Below are positions 5,185 to 31,621 of a DNA stretch of 50,405 nucleotides, one piece after another. The number at the start of each line of letters is the position of its first letter. Position 1 is the first letter of the stretch. The translations under genes and the position numbers were made by a program. The notes beneath the pieces are model-generated. The model was not told the origin of the DNA, searched no databases, and saw only the letters and a program-made list of their open reading frames with translations. The DNA comes from a virus: UHGV virus genome UHGV-0192279. One strand, given 5' to 3'.

Positions 5185-5235
5185 GACATTTTGTATAAAA
5201 TAGATGCATAGATCACATTTGCATGAGGTTAAATC

Positions 5236-7584
5236 ATGGCTACCAGTGTAGGCACAATTTATTACGAAGTTGACGCAAAAACAGGACAACTTCTTGTAGC
5301 ACAACGACAGGCAGACCAGGCCTTTGACCGTATAGAGCGCGGTGCTAAACAGGCAGATCGCCAGGTAAACACACTGAAAACATCAATCAAAGCACTGACC
5401 AAGGTTATCTATCTGCTAATTGCTGCCGAGGCCGTTAGACAGTTTATGGAAATGGCAGAGCAGGCCAAAATGCTTCGCGTAAAAATCAAAATGCTTACGG
5501 GCGATGCGGAGTCCGCCGGACGGGTTTTCGACGGCCTGAAAGCAATATCCAGGGAAACAGGGCAAAGCCTGAAGGATACTGGCGAGTTATGGCAAGGTCT
5601 TGCCATCTCACTGAAGAACACGTCAGCTACGGAAGGGCAATTACTTAACCTGGTTGGCACTATTCAGAAAATGGGGGCGTTAGGCGGCGCATCAGCGGAA
5701 CAGATGTCTAACTCTATGCGCCAGTTCCGCCAGTCTATAGACGGCGGCGTGCTGCGTGCTGAAGAATTTAACAGCCTACTTGAAAACACCCCGACCATCG
5801 TACAGACAATGGCCCGTCAGATGGGGTTATCTATGGGCAAGTTCCGCGCCGAAATGCTGGACGGCAAGATCACGGCAGAAAGGATGGTTAACGCAATCCA
5901 GGCGGCTACGCAGGAAACAAACGAGCAGTTTGCTCAGTTGCCGCGCACATCCGGCATGGCTATCAATGAGCTTAAAGTCGAAATCATGGGGCTTGTTGAA
6001 CAGCTTGATGATCTTTTCGGCGTATCAGATGGCGTAGTCTCAGCTATCGACTTAATCACAAAAGGCGTTAAGGGGTTAGGTGAGGGCGCTAAATTCGCTA
6101 AAACCTGCTTCGATACACTCAAAACGGCTGGTGGCGAATTCATCGACATGTTTGATGATGTGGCTGTGAAGGCTGGCGAGGTGGCAGAGAAGATCATCGC
6201 AATGGTGACGCCAATCAAGGCACTTATGGACGCCTACAAATGGATGAAGGAGGTTGTAGATAAGCGCAAGGAAGAACTAAATAGCAACAATGAGAAGAAA
6301 TTCGGCCCTACAGTCGGTAAAGTCATGACTTTTGCAAACGACATTAAAAACGCGACTGCCGCTTATGATGAGTTTATGCAGAAACAGGCAGAAGCCAACG
6401 ACGGCAAGATCACCGGATTCGACAAGCCAGTTGATAAGCCTAAAAAGGGTAAGAAGACTGGCAGCAAGAAAAGCAAAGAGGATACGCTTGGTGACAAGGG
6501 TATAAGCGTTTCTGACCAGTACAATAAAGACACCGCCGCCATGCGCAAAGCGTTAGAGAACGGCAAGGCCATTGATGCTGCATTCGCCCAGGGTAAAATC
6601 ACCCTCCTTGAGTACCGCGCCGCGCAAAAAGGGATAGTTAAGGAACGGGATGAAGAATTAGCCCAAATTCAGGTAGATGAATTGCGTGATAAATGGGCGC
6701 AAATAGTAAGCCCGATGAATCAGCTTAAAGGCGAGGTTGACCCTATTAAGCAGGTACAAGATGAATGGGCCGTCCGTAAGCAAAAGCTTATCGACCTGGG
6801 CGCTACCGAAGCGCAACAGAAACAGGCATTGTTAGCCTATGAGCAACAGATCCGCGATCTGAAATGGGAGCAATGGCAGGCGCAAAGCCAGACAAACGGC
6901 CTGATCGGTGATTGCGTTAATGGCCTTAAAGGTGGTATGAGCAATGCGCTTGTCGGCCTGCTTAACGGTACTCAATCATTGAGCGATGTTTTTGCTAACT
7001 TAGGGAGCAATATACTAGGGAATATTGGCAACAGACTTTCTGATATAGCAGCCGACTGGATAGCAGATCAGATCATGATGGAAACACAAAGCAAGGCAAC
7101 TCAAGCAAGTACAACGGCAAGCGCGGTTGCCGCTCAGGGAAGCATCGCGGCGGCGGCGGCCCCGGCGGCGGCGGCAACGGCTGCATCAACTGGCGGTAGC
7201 TGGGCGGCGGCTGGTTCGGCGGCGCTTACTGCGATCACGTCGCTGGCAACATCCATTTTCGGCGGCGGGCGCTTTAATGGTGGTAGCGTAATTGGTGGCA
7301 ATATGTACCGCGTCGGGGAACATAACAGGCCGGAGCTATTCCAGACGTCTAACGGCAACCAATACATGATCCCCGGCGAGAATGGCAGGGTTATCCCGGG
7401 GCGTGATATTGGCGGCGGCGGCGGCGGTATCAGTATGCCTGTTTACATCGACATTCAAACCACAAACGGATTTAGTGACGAAGACAGCCGCAGACTTGAA
7501 CAGACAATGGAACGTGTAGCAATGAAAATGATAACAAGGGAATCGCAAAGACCTGGCGGGATGTTGCAACCGCGCCGCAAATAA
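5236..7584 (+). CDS. tail tape measure protein (782 aa)
   Basis: Largest ORF between chaperone and tail-tip genes; long alpha-helical sequence with Ala/Gly-rich C-terminal region. Confidence 0.85.
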   Translation: MATSVGTIYYEVDAKTGQLLVAQRQADQAFDRIERGAKQADRQVNTLKTSIKALTKVIYLLIAAEAVRQFMEMAEQAKMLRVKIKMLTGDAESAGRVFDGLKAISRETGQSLKDTGELWQGLAISLKNTSATEGQLLNLVGTIQKMGALGGASAEQMSNSMRQFRQSIDGGVLRAEEFNSLLENTPTIVQTMARQMGLSMGKFRAEMLDGKITAERMVNAIQAATQETNEQFAQLPRTSGMAINELKVEIMGLVEQLDDLFGVSDGVVSAIDLITKGVKGLGEGAKFAKTCFDTLKTAGGEFIDMFDDVAVKAGEVAEKIIAMVTPIKALMDAYKWMKEVVDKRKEELNSNNEKKFGPTVGKVMTFANDIKNATAAYDEFMQKQAEANDGKITGFDKPVDKPKKGKKTGSKKSKEDTLGDKGISVSDQYNKDTAAMRKALENGKAIDAAFAQGKITLLEYRAAQKGIVKERDEELAQIQVDELRDKWAQIVSPMNQLKGEVDPIKQVQDEWAVRKQKLIDLGATEAQQKQALLAYEQQIRDLKWEQWQAQSQTNGLIGDCVNGLKGGMSNALVGLLNGTQSLSDVFANLGSNILGNIGNRLSDIAADWIADQIMMETQSKATQASTTASAVAAQGSIAAAAAPAAAATAASTGGSWAAAGSAALTAITSLATSIFGGGRFNGGSVIGGNMYRVGEHNRPELFQTSNGNQYMIPGENGRVIPGRDIGGGGGGISMPVYIDIQTTNGFSDEDSRRLEQTMERVAMKMITRESQRPGGMLQPRRK

Positions 7585-7588
7585 CACT

Positions 7589-7615
7589 AAGGCCGCTATA
7601 AGCGGCCTTTATTTT
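7589..7615 (+). terminator. rho-independent terminator after tape measure gene
   Basis: AGGCCGCT-ata-AGCGGCCT hairpin followed by TTTATTTT. Confidence 0.55.
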
Positions 7616-7901
7616 ACATGGTAAGGATATAAATTAAACAGCACAGGAATGCGGGCGCGGCGAAGTCGCAAACGCTAGCCATATTCCATGCTTTTGGTAA
7701 AAAACCACCATACCACGGCATTCTTTCTCGTTTCCCTCCGCAAAATTCCGCTATGTAACGATATTCAGCCTGTGTGTGTTCCCGCGCAAAAAAGAATGTA
7801 CATCCAATCAGGCCGCCAGTGAGATAATCACCAGTAAGCAGGCCGATAACAACCTGTATAGTCGCCGCAGCCAGTGCGTGACCAATAACGGTTAAATCCA
7901 T
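7614..7901 (-). CDS. small membrane protein (95 aa, about 2 TM helices)
   Basis: Hydrophobic segments; last gene of four-gene antisense cassette. Confidence 0.45.
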   Translation of the reverse strand: MDLTVIGHALAAATIQVVIGLLTGDYLTGGLIGCTFFFAREHTQAEYRYIAEFCGGKRERMPWYGGFLPKAWNMASVCDFAAPAFLCCLIYILTM

Positions 7902-7903
7902 CG

Positions 7904-8089
7904 TTAATCCTCCCGATCGTTCTCAAATGTGCCATCTACAAATTTTTGCAGCCCGGCGATAAGTTGTGTTGCCTGCGATTTTTCAATTACTATGGTTTCA
8001 GTCCCCATAAGTTCGGTTATCCACAGCCGACCATCCTCATCAAGATCTAACCTAACTCCGTAACATAACTCTGTTTCGTCAATAATCAT
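7904..8089 (-). CDS. small acidic protein (61 aa)
   Basis: AGGAGG SD upstream of ATG; preceded by palindrome GTTACGT-gcg-ACGTAAC. Confidence 0.45.
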   Translation of the reverse strand: MIIDETELCYGVRLDLDEDGRLWITELMGTETIVIEKSQATQLIAGLQKFVDGTFENDRED

Positions 8090-8198
8090 TTTTCCTCCTA
8101 TAATCTTCCGTTACGTGCGACGTAACCCCTGCCGAACATCACTAACCAGATGTTCCAGATCTCCCGCTAGGTATATTTCTCCTCCTCCATATTCCACC

Positions 8199-8459
8199 TC
8201 ACTTATGAGCGCCTTTCACTCCGCAATGACAGTTGTATTCCAGGTGATCGATAATTAACCAAATATTCAAATCTTCACTGAACAGCCGCCAGTCAGGATT
8301 GATATCGAATTTAAAGCCATAACCATCACGTAATTTTTTGGGGCGGGCTTCTTTTTTCAGGAAGGCGTTAAGCAACTTCTTGCCTTTCTTGATTACCCGT
8401 TCCTGTGCATTCTTTTGTGCTTTCAGGTTTTTTCGATAGTTACCAGTTTCATAACTCAC
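8199..8459 (-). CDS. small basic protein (86 aa)
   Basis: GTG start with AAGGA SD; Lys/Arg-rich N-terminal half. Confidence 0.4.
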   Translation of the reverse strand: MSYETGNYRKNLKAQKNAQERVIKKGKKLLNAFLKKEARPKKLRDGYGFKFDINPDWRLFSEDLNIWLIIDHLEYNCHCGVKGAHK

Positions 8460-8469
8460 CCCATCGTCC

Positions 8470-8625
8470 TTAGTTAAGCGCCCTCAGGAAGAAATCCCGG
8501 TATTCATCATTCTTCGCGTTCATCATGAATTGACCGTATTTGAATGCGTCGTCGAAACCCTTAACAATTGCTACTTCCACTTGCTCGAATGCGTTGTTTA
8601 GCATCACTACTACATAGCTACTCAT
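8470..8625 (-). CDS. 51-aa ORF (MSSYVVVMLNNAFEQ...)
   Basis: Below 60-aa track cutoff; ATG with GTGAGG SD; first gene of antisense cassette. Confidence 0.3.
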   Translation of the reverse strand: MSSYVVVMLNNAFEQVEVAIVKGFDDAFKYGQFMMNAKNDEYRDFFLRALN

Positions 8626-8695
8626 TTTTGGGCCTCACTTGCTGGTACCGCTTTTCTTCTTGCTTCCTGTATACAGCTTGTTGCTTCGTGTGTGA

Positions 8696-8709
8696 ATACA
8701 TATTGTAAA
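8696..8709 (+). repeat. 14-bp repeat ATACATATTGTAAA copy 1 (contains palindrome TACAtatTGTA), 6 nt upstream of a TATAAT hexamer
   Basis: Exact 14-mer shared with 10301-10314; both in divergent intergenic regions upstream of tail-tip genes. Confidence 0.6.
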
Positions 8710-8795
8710 TTGGCTATAATTCTTGTGTCGAATATCTCATTTTTCGCGTAGAAGTGCGTAAAGATATATACAAAATGTAACTTACAGGAGGGGGT

Positions 8796-9149
8796 ATGCC
8801 GGAAGTGTTCAGATGGACACCACAGAGAAGCTACAGCGTAAACAGTGAGCCTAACGTGTCCGTTATCAAGCTGGGCGATGGCTATGAACAGCGCCAGACA
8901 AAAGGGATTAATCCACTACTTGACAGCTATACGCTGGTCTTTAAAGGTACGAGCGCCGGATGCGGTGACGCCGGAAACGTGGCGCTCCAGGTTGACGCAT
9001 TTTTAAGAGCACGTTGCGCGGTCGAGGCGTTTTACTGGACGCCATCTACAGACGGAGTGAAAAGGCTTTTTGTATGCCGAAAGTGGAGCATGGCGAAAGA
9101 CGGCCCGGTATGCACTCTGAATGCAACGTTTGAACAAGTTATCAATTAA
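8796..9149 (+). CDS. M: minor tail protein M (117 aa)
   Basis: Clear similarity to lambda gpM pattern (FRW...GDGY.QR...WTP...KWS...FEQV.N); AGGAGGGGG SD. Confidence 0.85.
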   Translation: MPEVFRWTPQRSYSVNSEPNVSVIKLGDGYEQRQTKGINPLLDSYTLVFKGTSAGCGDAGNVALQVDAFLRARCAVEAFYWTPSTDGVKRLFVCRKWSMAKDGPVCTLNATFEQVIN

Positions 9150-9162
9150 TGGAGAAGTCAAT

Positions 9163-9348: not shown

Positions 9349-9448
9349 ACACGACCCCGCGCGAAGCGGGGTTTATAGTGTCGATAGCAGAATGCATAAC
9401 AATCCAATAATGATAATAATCACCTCCAGAACGTAATGTTCGCACATC

Positions 9449-9697
9449 TCATAACGCCCCCTTCAAATATGTCAATCCCTTATCAGTGACGAATGAATGG
9501 TTTACCTGGTTTTCATCCGTCATGATGATGAATAACTTTTCCTGTAGGTATTTCGCTTTTGGGTACAGCGTTAAACAGACCTGGTACAAAACCCCGCGCT
9601 CAATCAGCAAATCAATAAATTCGTGCTCATGATAACCGATAAGGCGGGCGGCCTGTTTCAACGTGTACACATAGTCACCGTGATTGCGCCGCGTCAT
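9449..9697 (-). CDS. small HTH-like protein (82 aa)
   Basis: Helix-turn-helix-like segment YTLKQAARLIGYHEHEFIDLLIERGVL; last gene of three-gene antisense cassette. Confidence 0.4.
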   Translation of the reverse strand: MTRRNHGDYVYTLKQAARLIGYHEHEFIDLLIERGVLYQVCLTLYPKAKYLQEKLFIIMTDENQVNHSFVTDKGLTYLKGAL

Positions 9698-9706
9698 ATT
9701 GCCACC

Positions 9707-10033
9707 TTATTTGCCGAACGCTCCCAGGTTGTCGATACAGAAATCTTTTGCCGCTTTTTCGTATTCACGTTTTGCTTGCGGATCATCTGCCGGGAAACCT
9801 TTTACGTGTATTTCACTAGGACAAGCCTGATCCATAGAGTTGGCAAAATTAACATTGAAGTTAACATTAATATCTTTCGGGTTCATATCTTCCACCTTAT
9901 CCGCTATTTGTACTGGAATGATTTTAAATTCCCTGGCGCGTCCGAAGAATCGAACAAGTTTTTCACCTTCCTCGATCGCCATTTCGTGACTATCATACAA
10001 GCCGTAACCTTCCCAATCCTTACTTCCTGCCAT
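9707..10033 (-). CDS. hypothetical protein (108 aa)
   Basis: ORF in antisense cassette; no recognisable motif. Confidence 0.4.
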   Translation of the reverse strand: MAGSKDWEGYGLYDSHEMAIEEGEKLVRFFGRAREFKIIPVQIADKVEDMNPKDINVNFNVNFANSMDQACPSEIHVKGFPADDPQAKREYEKAAKDFCIDNLGAFGK

Positions 10034-10081
10034 CCATACATCGAGACGATATTTTGCATGGTGTTACCTTTGTGTTTATTG

Positions 10082-10240
10082 TCATGCGTATCTGTTGTAG
10101 CTATTAGCCTTGCAAGCGTAATACTGACGTTCGGCTATATGGAACGGTTTTCCCATCTCTTTGATAAGAACATCCATAAATTTTTTCATGTCGCCTTTCA
10201 CTTCAACAAAAACTTTCTCTGCGTATTTTGCGGGTCTCAT
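10082..10240 (-). CDS. 52-aa ORF (MRPAKYAEKVFVEVKGD...)
   Basis: Below track cutoff; ATG at cassette 5' end with weak SD. Confidence 0.25.
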   Translation of the reverse strand: MRPAKYAEKVFVEVKGDMKKFMDVLIKEMGKPFHIAERQYYACKANSYNRYA

Positions 10241-10300
10241 AGTGTTCTACCTTGTTCAAAGTTGTGCCATTTTGTTGACTCCCCTTCGTTTGAGTAAAAT

Positions 10301-10314
10301 ATACATATTGTAAA
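10301..10314 (+). repeat. 14-bp repeat ATACATATTGTAAA copy 2
   Basis: Exact copy of 8696-8709, 67 nt upstream of the L start codon. Confidence 0.6.
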
Positions 10315-10380
10315 AATATGGATCAATCCATTTTGGCATGATCTTGCGTGATGCAGATCACAAAATGACAAGGTGAGAAA

Positions 10381-19398: not shown

Positions 19399-19665
19399 AT
19401 GAAAGATGTTAGCTTGCAATTTACTGATAAACAGCAATACAACGATATTGTGATTAAGAGCGGCTGGCTGGACGCCAACTGGTCAACCGTATTTGTTGAT
19501 GAAATTGGTTTTGTGCCTGTATTCGATGATCCAGAAAGTGAGACACCTGTACTGATTGAGAAAAAGGGCTATTACGTCAACATGCGCATTACTGGCGACG
19601 ATGTTGATTTGTCGCCGCTGGAAAAATTCATCGTTCTAGATCCAGGCGTCCGCGCATGGGCTTGA
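19399..19665 (+). CDS. hypothetical protein downstream of tail fibre (88 aa)
   Basis: AAGGTGG SD; ATG at 19399. Confidence 0.4.
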   Translation: MKDVSLQFTDKQQYNDIVIKSGWLDANWSTVFVDEIGFVPVFDDPESETPVLIEKKGYYVNMRITGDDVDLSPLEKFIVLDPGVRAWA

Positions 19666-19710
19666 TGGTGCGACAGCAACAGCATGGTGATGTTGAAGAC
19701 ATCGCCGCGA

Positions 19711-19737
19711 AACGAGGCTAACTCCTCGTTTCTTTTT
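19711..19737 (+). terminator. rho-independent terminator
   Basis: AACGAGG-ctaact-CCTCGTT followed by TCTTTTT. Confidence 0.6.
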
Positions 19738-19836
19738 GTGTACCAAATAGTGACCAAATATCAAAAATCCAAAGCAAAGATAACATAACATGCTGTTTTA
19801 CAAATGATTATTCATGTCGTTAATCATTCCAGACAG

Positions 19837-19868
19837 GGGAACGGAGTTCCGTTCCGTTCCCATTTTTT
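19837..19868 (+). terminator. second rho-independent terminator
   Basis: 9-bp stem GGGAACGGA/TCCGTTCCC, 7-nt loop, then ATTTTTT. Confidence 0.6.
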
Positions 19869-19957
19869 ACGCCATAAATAAAATGTTCCCCTGCTAATTC
19901 CACCAAGCATCCGGCAGATGGCAGGGCGACTAAGAAGGATTGTCCCTGTTTTATCCA

Positions 19958-20611
19958 TTATTCCGTGTATTCAACGTGTCCGATACATCCGTCAATAATA
20001 GCTTGCGCCATATTGCGATAATCACGCGAATAATCATTATCACGATTGAAATTTATTTCTCCTGCCGCATCCTCACCAATAACCTTCGTAGCCAGAGCAA
20101 ACGCAATTTGCGCCAGTGCTTTTTCTTTCGGATCAACGTATAAATAATAATTATAAAAACCCCATTCAATAGCATTTTCTTTCTGTATACTGCCTTTTTC
20201 TGTGTATACCCCGTATTTATCACCGATAAACTTAAACATTACAATCCCAATGTAATAGCCATCAGGATAATAACAATCAAGCCACACGCCGCACGGCGGC
20301 TTTTCTCCTGGCTTCCATTCTGTTTTTTCTTGTTGTGTTTCGCAATCATGGCGTTCATCTTCGATTAATTCATCAATGATTTCACTTTCTTTATTCATGC
20401 CGTCATCATCCTTATTCGATAAATTAGCGTATTTATCAAATTTCCAGCTTGCAGCCATAACCGAATAAGTGCCGCCAGTGTCAGCGCGGACACCCAATAA
20501 ATAGTATGATCCAAAATTATATTCTGTGCGGCATGTTGTTACCTCAAACGATGGGTAACATTCAGGGTTAGTGCGATGGCTAATCACGCCAATTGCTTTT
20601 AGTTTATTCAT
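19958..20611 (-). CDS. hypothetical protein (217 aa), last gene of leftward early operon
   Basis: ATG at 20611 with GAGGA SD (track start 20626 is TTG); no recognisable motif. Confidence 0.5.
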   Translation of the reverse strand: MNKLKAIGVISHRTNPECYPSFEVTTCRTEYNFGSYYLLGVRADTGGTYSVMAASWKFDKYANLSNKDDDGMNKESEIIDELIEDERHDCETQQEKTEWKPGEKPPCGVWLDCYYPDGYYIGIVMFKFIGDKYGVYTEKGSIQKENAIEWGFYNYYLYVDPKEKALAQIAFALATKVIGEDAAGEINFNRDNDYSRDYRNMAQAIIDGCIGHVEYTE

Positions 20612-22277: not shown

Positions 22278-23699
22278 TTAAAAGGATGCGTTATTCTGGT
22301 TATTTCGTGTGGAGAATCGGCTTGCTGCCGGACGTTGTTGCATTGACTGGATGCAGGCGGACGCCGCGCGAGCCTGGTTGCATGGAATGATGTTGCCGTT
22401 ATCGTCAAACCGCTGGTAAACAGTCCCCGTTTTCCCGTAACGGTTTTTTGAAACGATGATCTCCATGTATTCGCGGGCAACTGATTGTTCGTTGTAGTAG
22501 CCGTCGCGGTAGACCATGATGATCCGGTCTGCGTCTTGTTCAAGATTACCGGAATCACGCAGATCAGAATTGTTCGGGCGCTTGTTCGGTCGTTCTTCAA
22601 CGCGGCGGGATAATTGCGCCAGCGCCGCCACTGGCACGCGCAACTCTTTCGCCATCATTTTCAATGACCACGACAATTGCCCTACGGCGAGATCATGACG
22701 TTCGGCCTTAGCCAGTTTCATTAACCCGATGTAGTCAATCATCACCATTCCAAGATTAGGATGGTCCTGTTTCATCCGTTCGACGGTGGCGCGTATTTCC
22801 TCAACCGTTAACTGCGATGCGTCAACAATCCACACATCGAGATCGGCAAGGGCGCTCATCCCCCGGGCAACGTGCGCCCATCCTTCGTCATCCAGTTTTA
22901 CCGGATTACGTAGGCAATCCGTTGATAAATTCCCAGCGCCAGCGATAGCTCGTTCAGTCATCTGATCGAGCGACATTTCAAGCGTGAACAGCAAAACGCC
23001 GACCCGCTGACCTTCTCCGCCAGGGTATTGGCGTCCAGCCGCCGCGCGGGCAATTGCCAACGCCAACGCCGATTTACCAGACCCCGGGCGTCCGGCGATA
23101 AGCACCAGATCAGTAGCGTTAATGCCGCCTAACATTTCGTCGAGTGGGTCAATCCCTGTTTTGATGTTGTCAGAGTTCACGCCACACTCCATGCGTTTAC
23201 TTAGCACTTCCGTGTATTCCTGGACAGCATCGCGCAACAGCACCGGGATAATCTGATCTTTTGTTACCTTTAATTTTGAATACCGGGAATCAAAATCTTT
23301 CATCGTCTCTTTGACAACTTCAAGCGTCCCCGTTTCCAGCTTGTAGCGAACGTCTTCCATTAGCTCCAGCATTTGCCGCCGCTGGTGTTCTTCCTGTAGT
23401 AGCTGCGCGTACCCTTTCAGGTTGGCAGCAGAAGGACACGATCGCGCCGTTTGCATTAGCGGTATGAAATTTTCGTTACCGATTTCATCACCAACCAATA
23501 ACGCGTCGATAAGATTTCTGTTTCTGGCTTGCGCCCTGATGATTTCGAACGCGCGCCTGTACAGAGGAATAGTGAATACATCAGGATCGAGTGTAGCAAG
23601 AACATCTTGCGCGTTAGGAGTAAGCCCGCCTAACAGGAGGCCACCTATAACAGCCGCTTCGCGCTCCTGCCGCAATGAGTTTACTTGGTCAGTTATCAT
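22278..23699 (-). CDS. dnaB: replicative DNA helicase, DnaB family (473 aa)
   Basis: N-terminal DnaB domain plus Walker A GRPGSGKSALALAIA and conserved RecA-fold motifs. Confidence 0.9.
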   Translation of the reverse strand: MITDQVNSLRQEREAAVIGGLLLGGLTPNAQDVLATLDPDVFTIPLYRRAFEIIRAQARNRNLIDALLVGDEIGNENFIPLMQTARSCPSAANLKGYAQLLQEEHQRRQMLELMEDVRYKLETGTLEVVKETMKDFDSRYSKLKVTKDQIIPVLLRDAVQEYTEVLSKRMECGVNSDNIKTGIDPLDEMLGGINATDLVLIAGRPGSGKSALALAIARAAAGRQYPGGEGQRVGVLLFTLEMSLDQMTERAIAGAGNLSTDCLRNPVKLDDEGWAHVARGMSALADLDVWIVDASQLTVEEIRATVERMKQDHPNLGMVMIDYIGLMKLAKAERHDLAVGQLSWSLKMMAKELRVPVAALAQLSRRVEERPNKRPNNSDLRDSGNLEQDADRIIMVYRDGYYNEQSVAREYMEIIVSKNRYGKTGTVYQRFDDNGNIIPCNQARAASACIQSMQQRPAASRFSTRNNQNNASF

Positions 23700-23709: not shown

Positions 23710-23727
23710 CCTCATGTTTACAAAATG
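23710..23727 (-). repeat. 18-bp repeat CATTTTGTAAACATGAGG (minus strand), copy 1, upstream of helicase start
   Basis: 17 of 18 nt identical to 24846-24863; contains start-stop mini-ORF ATGAGGTAA and the TACA-N3-TGGA motif. Confidence 0.6.
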
Positions 23728-24851
23728 GAATATTCAGGGTAATAAACAAAGCGCCCAATTTCTCCATGAGCCGGGCTGTAAATAATCACCGCCGCCAGCC
23801 GCCGTGAACGCCAGCCGCCATTCGTCGAGTAAGCATCTTTGCCAGCTAACGTTCCGTGATACTCGACAACGCCTAACGATGATTCAATCAGCCGCTGGTG
23901 ATGCCAGTGTCCGCAATGAGCGTAAACTGACGACGATTTACCGAAATCCTCCCGCCAGTCAGAAACACAGGCAGCAAGTAAGGTTTCTGGTTTTTTGATG
24001 GTGTGTCCGTGGTGGTAAGCAAGGAATGTTTTTCCGTATTGTGTGTGGTGGACGATAGCAGGGGACACATCAACCGTTACGCGCGGTTCATCTTCGTAAA
24101 AAGCCGCCAGCGCCGCACGTAGCCAAATCATCCCCGACTGATCGTGATTGCCGGATAACACCTGGATCTCGACGTCCTTATGGTTTAACAACATTTTCCC
24201 CACCGCACGCCGGACCGACCGGATCGCCACATAAACAAGTTTTGCGTAGCGTGAATCGCAATCTAAGACGTGATTACTTGATGGCGTCACTGGTAATAGC
24301 CCGTCCGTGTGAAGCACATCACCGCCGAGAAGCAATACAGCTTTTTCAGACGTTGGTGCAGCGCCTACAGCGTAGTCAAAGAAGTCATTTAACACGCGTT
24401 CAGCGATCCCGGTGTCGTAGCTTTCTCCGCATTCAGCTTTATGCGCAAGCGCCCCGATATGCAGATCGAATACCGGATAAAGGGCCAGGCTTTTCTGAAA
24501 ATCAATTTCCGGCACTGGCACGGCTTCCTCGCGCGGCATTTCTTCCGTAAATGCGTCACAAGCTGCCTGCATTAGCCTTTCCATTTCCTCACGGTCACGG
24601 GCCGTTTTAATCCAGCGCATGATTACATTGCCATCTTTATCAACGAGCAATGATTCACCATTGACACCAAAACCCGGCGCGCGGCGCGTGGATATTAAAC
24701 CGCGTTTCGCCAGCCGTGCGCCCAGGCGCTCGACGTTGCGTTTTGCCATGCCGTACTTCTCAGCGATCTGTTTATACGTCAGGCCGCTGTTATGTTCAGC
24801 GATTAATTCCTCATCGCTGATCTTTCTTTGTGACATAACGTTATTCCTCAT
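23718..24851 (-). CDS. HTH domain fused to metallophosphoesterase (377 aa)
   Basis: N-terminal HTH (LTYKQIAEKYGMAKRNVERL); C-terminal calcineurin-like motifs DLHIG, GGDVLHTDG, GNHD, GHWHH. Confidence 0.7.
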   Translation of the reverse strand: MRNNVMSQRKISDEELIAEHNSGLTYKQIAEKYGMAKRNVERLGARLAKRGLISTRRAPGFGVNGESLLVDKDGNVIMRWIKTARDREEMERLMQAACDAFTEEMPREEAVPVPEIDFQKSLALYPVFDLHIGALAHKAECGESYDTGIAERVLNDFFDYAVGAAPTSEKAVLLLGGDVLHTDGLLPVTPSSNHVLDCDSRYAKLVYVAIRSVRRAVGKMLLNHKDVEIQVLSGNHDQSGMIWLRAALAAFYEDEPRVTVDVSPAIVHHTQYGKTFLAYHHGHTIKKPETLLAACVSDWREDFGKSSSVYAHCGHWHHQRLIESSLGVVEYHGTLAGKDAYSTNGGWRSRRLAAVIIYSPAHGEIGRFVYYPEYSIL

Positions 24852-24863
24852 GTTTACAGAATG
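24846..24863 (-). repeat. 18-bp repeat CATTCTGTAAACATGAGG (minus strand), copy 2; ATG here is the start codon of the phosphoesterase gene
   Basis: Near-identical to 23710-23727; contains perfect palindrome TACAgaaTGTA. Confidence 0.6.
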
Positions 24864-24965
24864 TATATTTATTTCCCGTAAAACGCGCTACAACGCAAAA
24901 TCCCACCGCGTAACCCACTTATAAGAGTGCAGTGTCTTTCTTGCGTCAGAGGCGCTATCAGGTGG

Positions 24966-26379: not shown

Positions 26380-26382
26380 AGA

Positions 26383-26637
26383 TCATTCCTCCGGCAATGC
26401 AATGTCATAAATGTCGCCGTATTCGTCAGCGCGTTTAATGAATCCTTTGCGGATCAATGAATTTAATGCGTCAACAGTAGTATGCAGTGGCAGTTCGCAC
26501 ACTTTTGCGATCTCTTCGCGTGAAGCATGTGCGCGGCCTTTGTTGTCTGCCTTTTCTGCAAACGCAATTAAGACAAGTTTTTGGATCGGGCTGTTAAGTT
26601 TTACGTTCCATGCTTCATTCATCATGTGCATACTCAT
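26383..26637 (-). CDS. small HTH DNA-binding protein in cro position (84 aa)
   Basis: First gene of leftward operon divergent from repressor; AGGAG SD; winged-helix-like segment; could be Cro analogue or initiator-associated DNA-binding protein. Confidence 0.5.
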   Translation of the reverse strand: MSMHMMNEAWNVKLNSPIQKLVLIAFAEKADNKGRAHASREEIAKVCELPLHTTVDALNSLIRKGFIKRADEYGDIYDIALPEE

Positions 26638-26746: not shown

Positions 26747-26780
26747 TCGCTTCGCAGCGACACCGGATTTTTAAAGAGCA
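26747..26780 (-). promoter_or_regulatory. nut-like site (boxA-like TGCTCTTTAAAAA + hairpin TCGCT-gcga-AGCGA) in leader of leftward operon
   Basis: Minus-strand boxA matches lambda nutL/rrn boxA consensus; 8 nt later a 5-bp stem with GNRA-type loop. Confidence 0.45.
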
Positions 26781-26979
26781 TGAGGTATGCGCCTTTTTGT
26801 GCTATTCCGTTATCTTTTTTTTTGCGTCTTTGCAACTATGGCCTTACCTTGTCTGCAAGTTTACAGAATGGAGTTTTTAAATCAAGGCTTTGAAAAATAC
26901 ATTTTGTGACTTGTATCAAACTTTTGAGGTTATAGGGTAGCGACATGAAAACAAATGGTATGACTTAGCAAAGCAGCTC

Positions 26980-27591
26980 ATGCGAGCGCAAGGCATGAGC
27001 CAGGATTCACTCGCGGATCTCATGGGGATAACTAAAGGCGGCCTGTCACACTGGCTTAACGGTCGCCGCGAGCCAAATCTTGAAGATATTGCGCGGATTA
27101 TGCGGGCACTTGGTCGTCGGCAGTTCACTGTTACCCATGATGGAATGGTCATTGATGATTCTGTTTCTAACACGTTACCGGGAGCGCCGCAGCGTGATTT
27201 AGGCAGTTACCCGGTTGTTGACTGGAAGGACACAGTAAACAATATGGAAGATACAAGGCGATCAACATTACCACACGTTACGACTAGCGTTATTTGTTCA
27301 GATGATAGTTACTGGCTGGTTGCTAAAGGTGAATCAATGAACGCGCCGCAGGGGTTGAGCATCCCTGCCGGGACGATGATACTTGTTGACCCACACGCGC
27401 CAGCTATCGATGGAAAGCTGGTTATAGCACAGCTTGAGGAAGGGCAAATACCGACGTTTAAACAGTTGATTATTGATGGAGGTCAAAGGCTTTTACGTTC
27501 GCTTAACCCGCTGTATCCACCAATCCCCATGAATCCTGAATCGAAAATCATAGGCGTGGTGGTGGACGCGAAGATCGTAAACCTGCCATAA
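26980..27591 (+). CDS. CI-like repressor (HTH_XRE + S24 LexA-like peptidase), 203 aa
   Basis: N-terminal HTH (SQDSLADLMGITKGGLSHWLNGRREP) and C-terminal S24 domain with Ser (GESM) and Lys (TFKQL) dyad. Confidence 0.85.
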   Translation: MRAQGMSQDSLADLMGITKGGLSHWLNGRREPNLEDIARIMRALGRRQFTVTHDGMVIDDSVSNTLPGAPQRDLGSYPVVDWKDTVNNMEDTRRSTLPHVTTSVICSDDSYWLVAKGESMNAPQGLSIPAGTMILVDPHAPAIDGKLVIAQLEEGQIPTFKQLIIDGGQRLLRSLNPLYPPIPMNPESKIIGVVVDAKIVNLP

Positions 27592-27597
27592 AAAATT

Positions 27598-27622
27598 AGC
27601 CGCCGAATGGCGGCTTTTCTTT
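27598..27622 (+). terminator. rho-independent terminator after repressor gene
   Basis: AGCCGCC-gaat-GGCGGCT followed by TTTTCTTT. Confidence 0.65.
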
Positions 27623-27714
27623 GCCCTGAAAACACCAAAACGTAAACATAAAACGTGTTTTATTATTTAAATATCAATGACATATAAAATATTTAAAAAA
27701 GTATACAAAATGGA

Positions 27715-27743
27715 TTGACTCGGTGTATCACGGGGCGTATATT
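27715..27743 (+). promoter_or_regulatory. candidate early promoter (pL analogue): TTGACT -17- TATATT
   Basis: Near-consensus -35 and -10 with 17-bp spacer; TACA-N3-TGG motif abuts -35; about 40 nt upstream of boxA. Confidence 0.5.
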
Positions 27744-27785
27744 TCGAGGCAAAGGAGGTAGCAAGGCAGGGGAAAGAAGGTTACT

Positions 27786-27823
27786 TGCTCTTTAACAATC
27801 TGGTCAGCCGCTGGAAGTGCGGC
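27786..27823 (+). promoter_or_regulatory. nutL-like site: boxA TGCTCTTTAACAAT + boxB-like hairpin GCCGC-tggaagt-GCGGC
   Basis: boxA identical to E. coli rrn boxA core; hairpin 7 nt downstream; located in leader of N-like gene. Confidence 0.6.
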
Positions 27824-27879
27824 AATTAATGAAGATGATTTTTATTAAGTATCATCATGGGATATAAGGAGATCAGATT

Positions 27880-28170
27880 ATGACCGTAACAATTATGTAT
27901 GGCAAATGTGATAGCAAAATAAATGCCAGGGAACGCAGAAGAATAAAAAGAGAAAACGAAAGAAAATCATCACCTGCAATCAATAAAACTGACAATGTTG
28001 ATAAAGCTATTCGTTTTGCAAACGTAGAAAGATGCAAACCGAATGGCATTAAAGAGCATCGCAAAGGTGCGGCAAAATGGTATGCGGAAAACGAAAGCGG
28101 CAATTACTACCACGCAACACAACCGCGTAGTCTAGGGGAAAAACCCCTGGATAAAGTACGCTACAGATAA
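27880..28170 (+). CDS. N-like transcription antiterminator (96 aa)
   Basis: N-terminus MTVTIMYGK...NARERRRIKRENERK resembles P22 gp24/lambda N arginine-rich motif; AAGGAG SD; preceded by nut site. Confidence 0.65.
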   Translation: MTVTIMYGKCDSKINARERRRIKRENERKSSPAINKTDNVDKAIRFANVERCKPNGIKEHRKGAAKWYAENESGNYYHATQPRSLGEKPLDKVRYR

Positions 28171-28200
28171 TACAAAATGTAAACTTTCAAAGGTGACATT

Positions 28201-28323
28201 ATGGTTGTTCAGGCGCTTCAATTCAAACTGGCTGTAGCGGAAATGCTTCACGATGCCGAAATGTGGAGCACCGCGAATAAAGCTTTATATGTAGTGTTAA
28301 CAGCGAGGGAGATTAAAGGGTGA
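28201..28323 (+). CDS. 40-aa ORF (MVVQALQFKLAVAEMLHDAEMWSTANKALYVVLTAREIKG)
   Basis: AAGGTGA SD; stop overlaps erf GTG start; preceded by perfect TACAaaaTGTA. Confidence 0.3.
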   Translation: MVVQALQFKLAVAEMLHDAEMWSTANKALYVVLTAREIKG

Positions 28324-29380: not shown

Positions 29381-29395
29381 TTAAATAGGTTAGCG

Positions 29396-29674
29396 ATGGG
29401 TGATTATTTAAAAGCGCCACCGCCACCACGAACAAAAGAGCAAGTATTAAAAGAAGCCCGTGATCAAATCGATCATGAGCTTTTTTTATGCGGCACGGCA
29501 GCGGATCGGATGGCAAAAAGATTTAGTGACCTGTACGCAAAGCAAATATGGTTCGACAACTGGCAGGCAAGTTTTTACCCACTACAGAAAACTGATGATA
29601 TGCATTGGCCTGAATATGTCGATCCACGTATGCGCAAATATCGCGGGCGTATGGGCCAGGTTATTAACGATTAA
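29396..29674 (+). CDS. hypothetical protein (92 aa)
   Basis: ORF in early operon. Confidence 0.4.
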   Translation: MGDYLKAPPPPRTKEQVLKEARDQIDHELFLCGTAADRMAKRFSDLYAKQIWFDNWQASFYPLQKTDDMHWPEYVDPRMRKYRGRMGQVIND

Positions 29675-29687
29675 TGAGGAGTTAATC

Positions 29688-29939
29688 ATGACAGCTACAA
29701 CATTAAGCGAAAATAACTGTAGAGGTTTTCAGAGAACTGCGGAAAGCCTTGATGATAGTGATGTATTTGTTGATTTCGGCGGCGGCAACTATGAATTCGA
29801 AACGTCTGCGGGCTGGAGTGATAAATGGCCTTTCCCTACTCGACAGGAATTAAGCGATCGTAAATCATTTGGCGAAGATGCCGAACGCCTGGCGAATAAT
29901 AAATGGCTGGATAAATTTATTGCGGAGGCTGAAAAATGA
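29688..29939 (+). CDS. hypothetical protein (83 aa)
   Basis: ATG at 29688 with GAGGAG SD (track ORF 29460 extends upstream in same frame across previous gene). Confidence 0.4.
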   Translation: MTATTLSENNCRGFQRTAESLDDSDVFVDFGGGNYEFETSAGWSDKWPFPTRQELSDRKSFGEDAERLANNKWLDKFIAEAEK

Positions 29940-30055
29940 ACATAATCAAAATAGCAGCGTTATCCGCAGGGGTTGCAATAGCGGTTGCTTATCTTGCCGC
30001 TTCGCTTTATATCACGATAGCGATCATAAAACTGATTACTAATATGTGGGGTTAA
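29936..30055 (+). CDS. 39-aa single-TM peptide (MNIIKIAALSAGVAIAVAYLAASLYITIAIIKLITNMWG)
   Basis: Below track cutoff; GGAGG SD; ATGA overlap with upstream stop; hydrophobic core. Confidence 0.4.
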   Translation: MNIIKIAALSAGVAIAVAYLAASLYITIAIIKLITNMWG

Positions 30056-30057
30056 TC

Positions 30058-30177
30058 ATGAAAGTCGGTAAGGATATTGTGACGGTCGCGTTTTGCGTTA
30101 TTTGTTTCCTGTTTACGATTGCATTTTGCGGAGCACTTGCTGCGGTATTGGCTTTTATTGGTAAGGGGTTGATGTGA
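30058..30177 (+). CDS. 39-aa single-TM peptide (MKVGKDIVTVAFCVICFLFTIAFCGALAAVLAFIGKGLM)
   Basis: Below track cutoff; GGGG SD; stop overlaps next start. Confidence 0.4.
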   Translation: MKVGKDIVTVAFCVICFLFTIAFCGALAAVLAFIGKGLM

Positions 30178-30449
30178 TGGTTACTTGGAATGTAAAAGAG
30201 GGCGATCTTGTTGTTTTGCCTGAATATCGTAGTGACCCTGGTCTGGTTGTGCTGAACAAGACATATAACGATCTTGAGCGCCCAATCCTGGTTAAATATC
30301 TGGACGGAACAATTATAGAGCCGCGTTTCTTCGACAAGATTGAACTGAAGGCCCGCAATGTTCGCGTTAAGCCGTTCCGGGCTTATGTTGAAAACCACTG
30401 GCGTAAATTGTTCGCCGGACTGGATGGGATGTTCGGCGTATGGCTATAA
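30177..30449 (+). CDS. hypothetical protein (90 aa)
   Basis: ATG at 30177 overlapping upstream stop (TGATG). Confidence 0.45.
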   Translation: MVTWNVKEGDLVVLPEYRSDPGLVVLNKTYNDLERPILVKYLDGTIIEPRFFDKIELKARNVRVKPFRAYVENHWRKLFAGLDGMFGVWL

Positions 30450-30631
30450 AATTAGTGAAGGTTAAACACCTGAAAGGCGGTGAAAGATTAATGTCATGGT
30501 GGGGACATGAATTTATTGCTACTGCCTTTCATTTCGGCCCGGGTGGTCAAGTAACAATATTTGATGAAGATTACGACGAGGTGGGGCAATGGCATCTTGA
30601 GCAATATGTCGAGGTGTTAAATGAAAATTAA
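30440..30631 (+). CDS. hypothetical protein (63 aa)
   Basis: ORF with overlapping start; weak SD. Confidence 0.3.
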   Translation: MAIKLVKVKHLKGGERLMSWWGHEFIATAFHFGPGGQVTIFDEDYDEVGQWHLEQYVEVLNEN

Positions 30632-30953
30632 ATTCCACAAAGCGTATGACGCTAACACAAACAAGCTATCACTATTTATCGAATTCGAACGCCGGATCGT
30701 GGTAGCGCCCTGGTCGCGCCGCTTCAATGACGCTGGCGGGCGGCGAAAATTCGCGGTTGATATGCTGTTACGCGGCTGCGGCCTTATGCGACCGCTATCT
30801 GACTTAAAACGAATGATGCCGGGATCGTTCGGTCAGATTGATGAAATAGAAATAAGCCCGGAAGAACTGAAACGGGAGCGTGATTTATTCCTTTCAAGCG
30901 AAGAAAACCCGTTTAATTCAGAAACTGAAATGAAATGGCATCATCCACTATAA
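30621..30953 (+). CDS. hypothetical protein (110 aa)
   Basis: GAGGTG SD; ATG 30621. Confidence 0.4.
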   Translation: MKIKFHKAYDANTNKLSLFIEFERRIVVAPWSRRFNDAGGRRKFAVDMLLRGCGLMRPLSDLKRMMPGSFGQIDEIEISPEELKRERDLFLSSEENPFNSETEMKWHHPL

Positions 30954-30964
30954 GGGTAAATATT

Positions 30965-31585
30965 ATGAACAATATCAAAACGGCTTATTCACTCGGCAGC
31001 GAAGGCATGTTAATTACTCGCTACACAGAAGACGCGAGCTTTCACGAAGTGGTAACTAAGGATTATCACGAAGTATTAAAAGATATGAACGCTGGCGCGT
31101 ATGACGGTGATTTAAACCTGGCGCTACAGGTTGTTGACATTGTGATGGATGCGTCAATCCGCGATTACGTGTCTCTAAATATGGAAGAAAAAACATCGGT
31201 AGCGCGTTATGTGTTCTGCCTCACTTTCGTAAGACGCATGGAGGAGGAATTCGGACGTGTACCAGTGCCGGAAGAACTGGACCCGCTTGCGTATGGTAGT
31301 GCGATAATGGTCCCGCTGGGCGACGGGGTGATGGGTAGTGCTTCATTGCATACAATCCGTGAACTGATGCGAGATAGCCTTGAAGCTGAAGTGCTTAAGA
31401 AAGCGGTAGAAGAAGGGCGCGACGCGGAAGAAGTGAAAAAATTCATGCCTGTTATTTATGGTGATATGGTCGGCGATAATATGCGGGCTAATGATTTTGG
31501 CGTCCAGTGTGTTCTGGCGACGCTGAATGATGCCAGAAAACGTGCACAGCCAATGCCGAAACAGGAAAAACGTGTACTACATTAA
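30965..31585 (+). CDS. hypothetical protein (206 aa)
   Basis: ATG 30965 with AAGGG SD (track start 30935 overlaps upstream gene). Confidence 0.45.
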   Translation: MNNIKTAYSLGSEGMLITRYTEDASFHEVVTKDYHEVLKDMNAGAYDGDLNLALQVVDIVMDASIRDYVSLNMEEKTSVARYVFCLTFVRRMEEEFGRVPVPEELDPLAYGSAIMVPLGDGVMGSASLHTIRELMRDSLEAEVLKKAVEEGRDAEEVKKFMPVIYGDMVGDNMRANDFGVQCVLATLNDARKRAQPMPKQEKRVLH

Positions 31586-31589
31586 CAGG

Positions 31590-31621
31590 GTGATCGCGAT
31601 CACATAAATATACATTTTGTG
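31590..31621. promoter_or_regulatory. perfect 14-bp palindrome GTGATCGCGATCAC followed by ATACATTTTGTG motif
   Basis: Intergenic gap inside early operon; palindrome arms GTGAT/ATCAC recur at 34002-34015. Confidence 0.4.

Follow-up and report, generated by a model that had tools for sequence, protein, structure and literature searches.

A TACA-N3-TGTA palindrome dispersed over early and tail-cassette promoters of a mEp021-like phage is probably the operator of its CI-type repressor

The analysed stretch of DNA (50,405 nt, hereafter the window) is the genome of a mEp021-like phage of the mEpimmI group. Its immunity repressor gene, rep, has a full product of 215 aa in relatives, with the N-terminus MKTKWYDLAK, and the closest solved structure is lambda CI (3bdn). 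In the window, a 1-nt deletion near 26950 shifts the rep frame at codon 4, and the intact frame restarts at ATG 26980 or 26995; use of the upstream start lifts the HTH_3 score from 40 to 49 bits. Because rep is frameshifted in this genome, the candidate operators described below may currently be unoccupied. Rep021 expressed alone gives immunity to all members of the group (PMC11893012). The neighbouring gene at 26383-26637, whose product had been considered as a Cro-position regulator from the sequence alone, matches a replication-initiator domain, which rules out its identity as Cro, and no Cro homologue was found in the window. The features around rep are as follows.

26383-26637, minus strand: "Cro-position" gene, HTH_36 replication-initiator N-domain
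26780..26769: boxA downstream of the leftward early promoter
26885..26858, minus strand: predicted leftward early promoter, -35 TTGATT 26885..26880, 16-nt spacer, -10 TAAACT 26863..26858
26862..26872: candidate operator TACAGAATGGA in the leftward early promoter, where it overlaps spacer and -10
26898..26908: candidate operator TACATTTTGTG, 36 bp from the 26862-26872 site
26911-16 (TTGTAT), 26933-38 (TAGGGT), ATG 26945: PRM-like rep promoter, predicted to be leaderless
26945..27591, plus strand: rep, CI-type repressor gene, Pfam HTH_3 and Peptidase_S24
27634..27644: weak extra site ACCAAAACGTA, PWM score 11.8 bits, 70 bp ahead of the N-side operators
27704..27743, plus strand: N-side early promoter module, promoter scan 10/12
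27704-14: distal N-side candidate operator TACAAAATGGA, adjoining -35 TTGACT 27715-20
27729-39: weak proximal N-side candidate operator CACGGGGCGTA, which is TACGGGGCGTA in relatives

Across 44 relatives the site at 26862-26872 does not change while the promoter spacer varies in its upstream half, and the same promoter/operator layout recurs in a relative with 55% identity (L127). The leftward promoter would drive the replication operon. The centre of the operator at 26898-26908 lies at about -42 from the predicted leaderless rep start, where the PRM-like assignment was inferred by eye; a matrix built from the operators of four foreign prophages alone (the foreign matrix) gives this site 12.9 bits. 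On the N side, the distal site adjoins the -35 as had been noted from the sequence, the last TA of the proximal operator opens the -10 TATATT (27738-43), the operator centres are 25 bp apart and a boxA follows at 27786. The block AAAAAAGTATACAAAATGGATTGACTC at this promoter is invariant in relatives while the spacer varies, and the module is found identically in L129, L130, L132, L133 and phage L; at the 27634 site, CCAAAACGTAAAC is invariant in relatives. TACA-N3-TGTA is the only invariant element common to both divergent early promoter regions around rep.

Similar arrangements are found further downstream, where the position of nutR2 is taken from PMC11893012.

31611..31645, plus strand: candidate site pair, TACATTTTGTG 31611-21 and TCCGTTTTGTA 31635-45, centres 24 bp apart
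33983..34061, plus strand: predicted third early promoter, before nutR2, -35 TTGTTC 34034-39, 16-nt spacer, -10 TATACT 34056-61
33983-93 and 34047-57: candidate sites at the nutR2-side promoter, TACAAAATGGC and TCCGTTTTGTA, the latter overlapping the -10
34077: boxA-like ACTCTTTAAAAAT, downstream of the nutR2-side promoter

In relatives the 31.6-kb region carries TACATTTTGTA followed by TTGTGA-16-TAAACT, the same promoter-operator module; its hexamers are degraded in the window (CTGTGA, TAAGAA), and the site pair matches the foreign matrix. The nutR2-side promoter site scores 11.6 bits with that matrix, and mEp021 has TCCATTTTGTATACT and then TGCTCTTTAA at this promoter.

Three cassettes on the reverse strand of the tail operon carry sites at their predicted promoters.

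5156..5195, minus strand: predicted cassette A promoter module, gene 4521-4934 (minus strand)
5185-95, reverse complement: distal cassette A candidate operator TACAAAATGTC, adjoining -35 TTTACT 5184..5179
5160-70, reverse complement: proximal cassette A candidate operator ACCGTTTTGTA, overlapping -10 TATAAA 5161..5156
7614-8625, minus strand: cassette B genes, including a ParE-like toxin
8697..8731, minus strand: predicted cassette B promoter, TCGACA-18-TACAAT, promoter scan 10/12
9449-10240, minus strand: cassette C genes, including a KilAC/ANT-like protein
10266..10369, minus strand: cassette C control region, promoter scan 9/12
10326..10298, minus strand: predicted cassette C promoter, TTGATC 10326..10321, 17-nt spacer, TATATT 10303..10298
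10327-37, reverse complement: distal cassette C candidate operator GCCAAAATGGA, adjoining the -35
10302-12, reverse complement: proximal cassette C candidate operator TACAATATGTA, overlapping the -10, centres 25 bp apart
10266-76 and 10359-69: weaker cassette C copies, PWM matches

We infer the orientation of the cassette A promoter from its -35, which is better on the minus strand, and it is there that the 5185-5195 copy abuts a -35, another adjacency read correctly from the sequence. This promoter has a 17-nt spacer with operator centres 25 bp apart, and its sites are better in relatives (TACAAAATGTA and GCCATTTTGTA, also 25 bp apart). The cassette B -10 consists of the first 6 nt of the operator TACAATATGTA (reverse complement of 8697-8707). 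This operator also falls within the spacer that belongs to a plus-strand TATAAT (8715-20) directed at gene M. Relatives carry GCCATTTTGTA in its place, so that the site has been replaced and the motif kept. The cassette C sites are conserved in relatives.

Four more copies lie at gene junctions with no promoter nearby.

8769..8779: site TACAAAATGTA, ahead of minor tail gene M (8796-9149), 6 nt before its Shine-Dalgarno
23719..23729: site TACAAAATGGA, ahead of the DnaB-like helicase gene (22278-23699, minus strand), directly before its Shine-Dalgarno
24855..24865: site TACAGAATGTA of the leftward operon, ahead of a 377-aa gene (23718-24851, minus strand), about 6 nt before its Shine-Dalgarno
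28171..28181: site TACAAAATGTA, following the stop of the N-like gene (27880-28170) and preceding a Kil-like 40-aa gene (28201-28323; weak Kil match), no convincing promoter in its surroundings

The 28171 site is a perfect copy in 41 of 43 relatives with variable flanks, and the divergent L127 has TACAAAACGTA at the same N-like/Kil-like junction as well as a site at the same helicase-gene junction. The 23719 site is conserved as TGGA in 41 relatives, the 24855-24865 site scores 15.1 bits with the foreign matrix, and a site about 31 nt upstream of M is conserved in most group relatives; in the window it lies 72 bp from the 8697 site.

Altogether, sites overlap the -10 or adjoin the -35 at at least seven predicted promoters, three of them those of the tail cassettes. 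A layout of site, -35, 16-17-nt spacer and a -10 starting inside a second site, with centres 24-25 bp apart, occurs four times in the window. The promoter tool made calls with a site over or beside them at 27715-27743 (plus strand), 8731..8702 and 10326..10298 (both minus strand), and the leftward, nutR2, cassette A and PRM promoters, which fall below its threshold, were called by eye.

Perfect copies of TACANNNTGTA start at 8697, 8769, 10302, 24855, 28171 and 47027, six in the window against about 0.6 expected, and five of the six are intergenic. One-mismatch copies start at 5185, 23719, 26862, 26898, 27704 and 31611. The sequence-only reading had placed five perfect and these six one-mismatch copies correctly in our motif scan, but its list was incomplete, lacking for example the sixth perfect copy, which is outside the range it covered. 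That copy (47027-47037, TACAAACTGTA) lies within the portal gene with no promoter context, the same codons occur in the portal gene of mEp021, and it is probably fortuitous, kept as coding sequence. The earlier estimate of less than one perfect copy by chance agrees with the shuffles: whole-window dinucleotide shuffling gives 0.54 copies and shuffling within 50-500 nt blocks 0.57-0.65, with six reached in none of 100 and none of 300 shuffles, respectively. Copies with at most one mismatch show a modest excess (29 versus 17.5 +/- 4 expected). Among all 4-mer dyads with spacers of 0-12 nt (3328 tests), TACA-N3-TGTA ranks second (p = 6.7e-5); the raw count by itself is not decisive, because p is about 0.2 after Bonferroni correction over the 3328 dyads.

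The recurring palindrome is real. EM motif discovery, with each intergenic word used as a seed, arrives at TACA-N3-TGTA as the top motif, and the foreign matrix finds 11 matches of at least 12 bits in the window versus 1.08 +/- 0.97 expected (maximum of four in 200 shuffles). Nine of these 11 matches are intergenic, while intergenic DNA makes up only 9% of the window. Perfect copies number 61 in 284 kb of the group versus none in 481 kb from other enterobacterial phages, whose tails are homologous but whose immunity differs. About 70 related loci keep sites at orthologous places. In the immunity region, about 44 relatives have unchanged site blocks while promoter spacers vary; in the tail region, sites are kept or swapped for alternative versions of the motif. 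Within-group conservation carries little weight, since the flanks are also 84-95% conserved. In the ACA/TGT arms the G and C show almost no variation, and the general operator form appears to be TACR-N3-YGTA with A/T-rich flanks. Conserved as such, the one-mismatch TGGA variants are, on this sequence evidence, genuine sites.

Homologues of Rep (38-55% identity) that share its ITKGGLSHWLNGRREP-like recognition helix are carried by Citrobacter, Enterobacter, Tatumella and Shewanella prophages, Salmonella phage L and VT2-Sakai, all with the same TACR-N3-YGTA operator. All six have three copies in the cro-cI gap, with spacings of 32-36 and 25-26 bp, and all except VT2-Sakai, where it was not found within the 3.6 kb read, have a two-site module with 25-bp spacing at the N-side promoter. 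These arrays suggest that the palindrome is the operator of this CI family. Phage L and the four prophages share with the window the order of site, -35, spacer and a second site with the -10, followed by boxA. All six, VT2-Sakai included, differ from the window in having cro and in confining their sites to the immunity region. The immC of phage L contains all four strong matches and its other 39 kb none, and because every site is kept there, the dispersal appears to be specific to the lineage of the window. No paper defining the operators of the phage L/VT2-Sakai CI family was found in the accessible literature; an older phage L paper may do so.

The evidence favours the phage repressor over a Cro-like protein or a host factor, and the dispersed operator of a dimeric regulator proposed by the sequence-only reading gains support in that form: the palindrome is probably the site of Rep, dispersed over at least seven promoters and several junctions. 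What would be unusual is the presence of repressor sites at tail-cassette promoters and a few junctions, beyond the two early promoters. A Rep dimer, with its HTH_3 domain and an S24-peptidase-like oligomerisation domain, would bind each palindrome, and site pairs 24-25 bp apart, the lambda OR1-OR2 spacing, would allow cooperative binding. Rep would control the leftward replication-operon, N-operon, pre-nutR2, ~31.6 kb and three tail-cassette promoters, so that one repressor could keep at least seven transcription units off in the prophage and release them together upon induction. The site near -42 could activate rep, like lambda OR2. The junction copies (helicase, 377-aa, kil-like and M genes) are most likely either roadblocks against read-through or auxiliary sites, which through looping would raise Rep occupancy locally; this is the least supported step.

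It is unlikely that another phage protein, such as an unrecognised Cro analogue or a cassette product, binds the sites and that Rep recognises something else. Cro shares the operators in lambda-type switches, and the Cro of the foreign prophages has a similar recognition helix, so a second binder is expected there; the window lacks such a homologue, its gene in the Cro position encodes a replication-initiator domain and varies among relatives while the sites do not, and no further conserved palindrome is common to both early promoter regions. Rather improbable, too, is that the junction copies work as RNA, as a translational operator or processing signal. The hairpin would be limited to 4 base pairs closing a 3-nt loop, the leftward and N-side promoter copies, which precede or span the predicted start, would be untranscribed, and the motif is symmetric on DNA, with the site kept and the flanks not in L127; these points stand against the placement of the four copies 0-8 nt upstream of Shine-Dalgarno sequences and their common ending TGTAA(A)C along the mRNA.

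A host transcription factor, among the options raised earlier, is very unlikely to be the binder. The motif is A/T-rich and superficially like host sites such as OmpR half-sites, its sequence appeared in an OmpR paper, and CRP-like GTGA-N6-TCACA sites adjoin three copies, which makes host input plausible. However, the motif tracks one CI family over at least six genera, with the three-site array exactly in the cro-cI gap, and is absent from the 481 kb of other phages. We know of no E. coli factor with a TACA/TGTA-type 4-N3-4 palindrome; TyrR, GalR, LexA and DgoR sites have their arms in reverse order or other spacings. Least probable of all is a by-product of promoter composition (A/T-rich -10, UP-like sequence) or chance: the last TA of the site also opens the -10 at five promoters and the corrected dyad count is weak, but local-composition block shuffles never reach the observed count, the sites vary in position (over the -10, beside the -35, at -42, at junctions), the G and C of the arms hardly change, a foreign-trained matrix recovers the sites and phage L restricts them to immC.

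As the presumed operator system of Rep, the sites resemble those of lambda in several respects: a repressor with an HTH and an S24-type C-terminal domain, pseudo-palindromes over early promoters with adjacent sites 24-25 bp apart as in OR/OL, a repressor promoter that points away from an early promoter and has a site near -42, and N-like antitermination with boxA downstream. The window differs from lambda in having no cro, two clear rep-side sites rather than three, at least 15 sites at at least seven promoters rather than six sites at three, and no Ala-Gly at the aligned cleavage position of Rep. The core of 9-11 bp is also shorter than the 17-bp lambda operator. This short core, the missing Ala-Gly and the frameshift in rep count against the Rep-operator reading. 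In P1 a single immunity repressor, C1, governs many transcription units from operators scattered over the genome; the analogy is one of layout only, as C1 belongs to an unrelated family and binds an asymmetric 17-bp site, and P1 is a plasmid prophage. The gp71 repressor of mycobacteriophage L5 and cluster A has sites at promoters and in short intra-operon gaps, with a proposed elongation stop (PMC9283540), and these stoperators are placed similarly to the four junction copies. The L5 sites are asymmetric 13-mers, more than 20 in number and strictly co-oriented with transcription, bound by a monomer with two DNA-binding domains, whereas the window has near-palindromes, a putative dimeric CI-type binder and only about four promoter-less sites.

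The window is a siphophage genome, complete and circularly permuted, that belongs to the mEpimmI group, a recently defined coliphage family prevalent in the gut. Its nucleotide identity to mEp021, mEp044, mEp515 and MagusPhagus is 84-94%, and its two ends map to adjacent positions of mEp021. The 2025 description of the group presents its members as Nus-dependent, non-lambdoid temperate coliphages with a single common immunity, in which the CI-like repressor Rep021 by itself stops infection by all mEpimmI members, and leaves the operators undefined (PMC11893012). A literature search for the operator sequence and for the mEp021 operators found no accessible paper defining them.

The near-palindrome TACA-N3-TGTA recurs across this genome, and the coordinates given for its copies in a sequence-only reading were every one correct on re-check; a sixth perfect copy was found at 47027, within the portal gene. 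Shuffled-genome controls had been proposed in that reading; dinucleotide shuffles set an expectation of 0.54 against the 6 perfect copies. Shuffling in blocks of 50-500 nt, which keeps the A/T-richness of intergenic DNA, gives 0.57-0.65 expected perfect copies, with 0 of 300 shuffles reaching 6. The one-mismatch class is modestly enriched (29 copies vs 17.5 expected). In a census of all dyads (3328 four-base dyads with spacers of 0-12 nt) TACA-N3-TGTA ranked second, with p = 6.7e-5; this is not decisive after correction over all 3328 dyads, and the palindrome count was therefore dropped as sole evidence. The top dyad of the census, CCGCGCGG, has 9 copies vs 1.6 expected (at 13485, 13647, 15762, 23042, 32676, 33895, 36197, 39436 and 42281), and the copies that were placed lie mostly inside long ORFs.

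Tests independent of the chosen motif recovered the same element. Motif discovery by EM, seeded with every intergenic word, yielded TACAWWWTGTA from all best seeds. A foreign matrix, for which 20 operators from four prophages of other genera served as the sole training set, detected 11 matches of at least 12 bits in the window, vs 1.08 +/- 0.97 expected; the highest count among 200 shuffles was 4. Of these 11 matches, nine are intergenic, while intergenic DNA makes up 9% of the window. The sites are found at the same places in IMG/VR relatives (43 for the immunity region, 30 for the tail region), where the TGGA "mismatch" variants are kept as such and some sites are swapped for another version of the motif (GCCATTTTGTA in relatives vs TACATATTGTA at 8697). 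Such within-group conservation, or phylogenetic footprinting, tells little, since conservation of the flanks almost equals that of the sites. Perfect copies number 61 in 284 kb of the group vs 0 in 481 kb from 50 phages with more distant homologous tail modules.

The repressor gene rep lies on the plus strand with one early promoter on either side. In its 215-aa form the product, Rep, carries HTH_3 (4.9e-13) and Peptidase_S24 (3.6e-19) domains and matches lambda CI (3bdn) over its full length. Translation of rep really begins 17 codons before the start annotated in mEp021 (MKTKWYDLAK...): with this start the HTH_3 match is complete, and 215-aa homologues are abundant. Lambda-type repressors cleave themselves at an Ala-Gly by means of a Ser/Lys dyad when stimulated by RecA. 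Alignment of Rep with homologues shows the dyad, Ser131 and Lys173, to be invariant, and at residues ~95-105 (27225-27260) the Rep sequence DTVNN, with no Ala-Gly, is aligned to VSAG of the homologues. The promoters associated with the palindrome, four of them assigned by eye, are listed below.

Predicted promoters and promoter-site modules associated with the palindrome
27715-27743, plus strand: rightward (N-side) promoter TTGACT-17-TATATT, promoter scan 10/12
Left of rep, minus strand: leftward promoter TTGAYY-16-TAAACT, predicted by eye, boxA downstream
5156-5195, minus strand: promoter-site module upstream of cassette A
10298-10337, minus strand: promoter-site module upstream of cassette C, called by the promoter scan
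31611-31645: promoter-site module
34034-34061: nutR2 promoter TTGTTC-16-TATACT, single-site form, overlapped by a repressor site
Cassette B promoter TCGACA-18-TACAAT, scan 10/12, its -10 being the first six bases of site 8697-8707

On both sides of rep, pseudo-palindromic sites overlap the -35/-10 elements of the predicted early promoters. The rightward promoter is followed by boxA and then by an N-like gene. Site 27704-27714, which the sequence-only reading placed next to a pL-like promoter, indeed abuts its -35, and the last two bases of a weaker site, CACGGGGCGTA (27729-27739; TACGGGGCGTA in relatives), coincide with the start of its -10. The centres of the two sites are 25 bp apart; the block AAAAAAGTATACAAAATGGATTGACTC is invariant among relatives, and the promoter spacer varies. 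On the other side, site 26862-26872 covers the spacer and the -10 of the predicted leftward promoter, and site 26898-26908, at a distance of 36 bp, is positioned at approximately -42 of a predicted leaderless rep promoter. The N-like gene also contains, on its opposite (minus) strand, a third exact boxA-like sequence, GCTCTTTAA (28049-28057), which may be due to chance.

The probable binder is indicated by related repressors in other phages. In the alignment, CI homologues 38-55% identical to Rep have retained its recognition helix. We read the loci of L127, a mEpimmI-like phage with a 55%-identity Rep, and those of prophages from Citrobacter (L130), Enterobacter (L129), Tatumella (L132) and Shewanella (L133), of Salmonella phage L and of the Stx2 phage VT2-Sakai. 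In the six loci other than L127 the cro-cI gap contains three TACR-N3-YGTA copies, spaced 32-36 and 25-26 bp. The N-side module of two sites 25 bp apart followed by boxA is present in five of the six classical loci, and none was found in 3.6 kb of VT2-Sakai. Because the foreign loci display this canonical operator arrangement, TACR-N3-YGTA is the predicted operator of the CI (and Cro) family of Rep, and we infer that Rep would bind it in the window phage. In Salmonella phage L, immC contains every strong match and the other 39 kb contain none, whereas the window and mEp021 have 11 strong matches each, mostly outside the immunity region. Dispersal of the sites is therefore a trait of the mEpimmI lineage. 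The VT2-Sakai cI (L134, 1501-2160) has an in-frame stop in its HTH-coding region (…LGMT*GGIGHW…), and the cro-cI gap of this phage still holds three TACA-N3-TGTA-type sites.

The protein that the sequence-only reading had seen in the position of Cro turned out not to be Cro, having an HTH_36 replication-initiator N-domain instead; it was rejected as the binder on account of this domain and of its quite different versions among relatives with unchanged sites. Its gene, the first of the leftward operon (26383-26637), encodes this domain as a stand-alone 84-aa protein; L002 and L003 have the equivalent domain fused to a replication protein, and mEp021 has a divergent 81-aa version. No Cro homologue was found in the window, where tblastn with four Cro proteins of related switches returned only the HTH of Rep itself, and a cro gene is absent from the switch of the mEpimmI group. 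The 933W repressor was discarded as a characterised relative since its 15-bp operator differs. Host LexA was dismissed, as LexA boxes do not exceed chance in the window, and so were the sites of TyrR, GalR and DgoR, whose arm order or spacing is unlike that of the palindrome.

The arrangement of a site, a -35, a spacer of 16-17 nt and a -10 beginning within a second site is repeated at several positions in the window. Site 5185-5195 had been noted beside the -35 of a cassette promoter, and the module of cassette A (5156-5195) has this order of site and -35. Centre-to-centre spacing of the sites is 25 bp in three modules and 24 bp in the fourth. Most of the dispersed copies are explained by such dispersed promoters. 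Cassettes A (gene 4521-4934), B (7614-8625) and C (9449-10240) are each a reverse-strand unit in the tail operon with a terminator at its end, and their products include a ParE-like toxin and a KilAC/ANT-like protein. Within 8199-8625, cassette B encodes the ParE-like domain protein (86 aa), preceded by a 51-aa ORF that could be its antitoxin, both on the reverse strand within the tail operon; the KilAC/ANT-like protein (82 aa, 9449-9697) of cassette C lies behind a predicted repressor-controlled promoter. The NinG-Q region would be a separate repressor-controlled transcription unit, because nutR2 (34034-34090) appears to own a site-overlapped promoter. The palindrome as an extended -10 or alternative promoter element was rejected: its TG is one base too near the hexamer, and its position relative to the hexamers varies.

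A second palindrome, GTGA-N6-TCACA, is present in 4 copies vs 0.33 expected. Host CRP-cAMP sites have the form TGTGA-N6-TCACA, with their centre at about -61.5 or -41.5 relative to a weak promoter. The three intergenic copies (10348-10362, 31590-31604 and 34002-34016) match 9/10 CRP consensus arm bases, and each lies beside a repressor site, ~58-64 bp upstream of the predicted start of an operator-overlapped promoter. Relatives have kept the arms, and their spacer sequence varies freely. The promoters beside these copies may be co-activated by cAMP-CRP.

Four copies, at 23719, 24855, 28171 and 8769, occupy gene junctions without a nearby promoter, a few bases upstream of the ribosome-binding sites of a helicase gene, a 377-aa gene, a Kil-like gene and the minor tail gene M, respectively. 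The pre-kil and pre-helicase sites also occur in the divergent L127 phage, with unrelated flanks. These junction copies would most likely be auxiliary looping sites or elongation roadblocks. Internal promoters were rejected, since a -35 is missing and transcription from the predicted starts would truncate the Shine-Dalgarno sequence. CsrA-like sites have the consensus RUACARGGAUGU; such a site or an RNA hairpin was discarded because the stem has just 4 bp and GGA is missing from the loops. In cluster A mycobacteriophages the repressor gp71, which binds as a monomer and has an HTH and a "stoperator" domain, recognises an asymmetric 13-bp site; the stoperators are many, lie in short intergenic gaps of operons co-oriented with transcription, and are proposed to stop elongation (PMC9283540). 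The likeness of the junction copies to the L5 stoperators is in placement only. Stoperators are asymmetric, monomer-bound and strictly oriented, whereas the window has four promoter-less junction copies of a near-palindrome, so near-symmetric that orientation is not definable and with flanks that differ in L127, and Rep combines HTH_3 with S24.

As in lambda, a Cro/C1-type HTH makes up the N-terminal part of the repressor and an S24 (LexA-like) domain its C-terminal part, and adjacent sites are ~2.3-2.4 helical turns apart, a spacing that would allow cooperative binding; in the six foreign phages adjacent sites are spaced 25-26 bp. Unlike lambda, where the product of a divergent cro gene shares the operators, the window phage lacks cro and has no Ala-Gly at the aligned cleavage position. 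By most sequence-level criteria the system would work like the lambda switch. There is no new mechanism here, but a solid regulatory map of a prevalent gut phage family that was defined recently; what we rate as new is the apparent use of an ordinary CI-type operator as a genome-wide regulon extending into the tail operon. It is possible, and on balance doubtful, that a Cro-less, lambda-CI-type dimeric repressor acts as a genome-wide silencer of at least seven promoters, including those of three tail-operon cassettes, and also blocks read-through at promoter-less junctions. Under such silencing, the cassettes for the ParE-like toxin and the KilAC-like antirepressor would be immunity-controlled early genes, possibly co-activated by host CRP, and not lysogenic-conversion morons. 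The block of read-through would be a Gram-negative, dimer-based analogue of the mycobacteriophage stoperators.

The map provides a concrete operator sequence and promoter map for mEpimmI immunity that is open to testing, and extends to a repressor family common to Salmonella phage L and VT2-Sakai. It predicts that the immunity repressor switches reverse-strand cassettes of the tail operon, which changes the interpretation of such "morons", and gives a rationale for the unusual third nut site of the group, nutR2, with its own predicted repressor-controlled promoter. Whether repressors of the CI type can also work over a distance, or as roadblocks, could be studied in this E. coli system, which is tractable.

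With the mEp021 integrase as query, tblastn found no integrase gene in the whole window, and homology to mEp021 resumes at 19665-19960, just beyond the position of mEp021 int. The start region of rep (26945-26980) is frameshifted: ATGAAAACAAAATGG (MKTKW...) stands at the rep start in 43 of 43 relatives, and the window has one A fewer, leading to a stop after 7 codons. Reading of the remaining frame would resume at 26980 or 26995, which leaves out HTH helix 1. Either a mutation has inactivated the gene, or the frameshift stems from a sequencing error in a homopolymer. With int absent and rep frameshifted, the phage gives the appearance of having derived from a temperate mEpimmI phage and become obligately lytic, and, given the frameshifted rep, its sites may be remnants from a very recent temperate ancestor.
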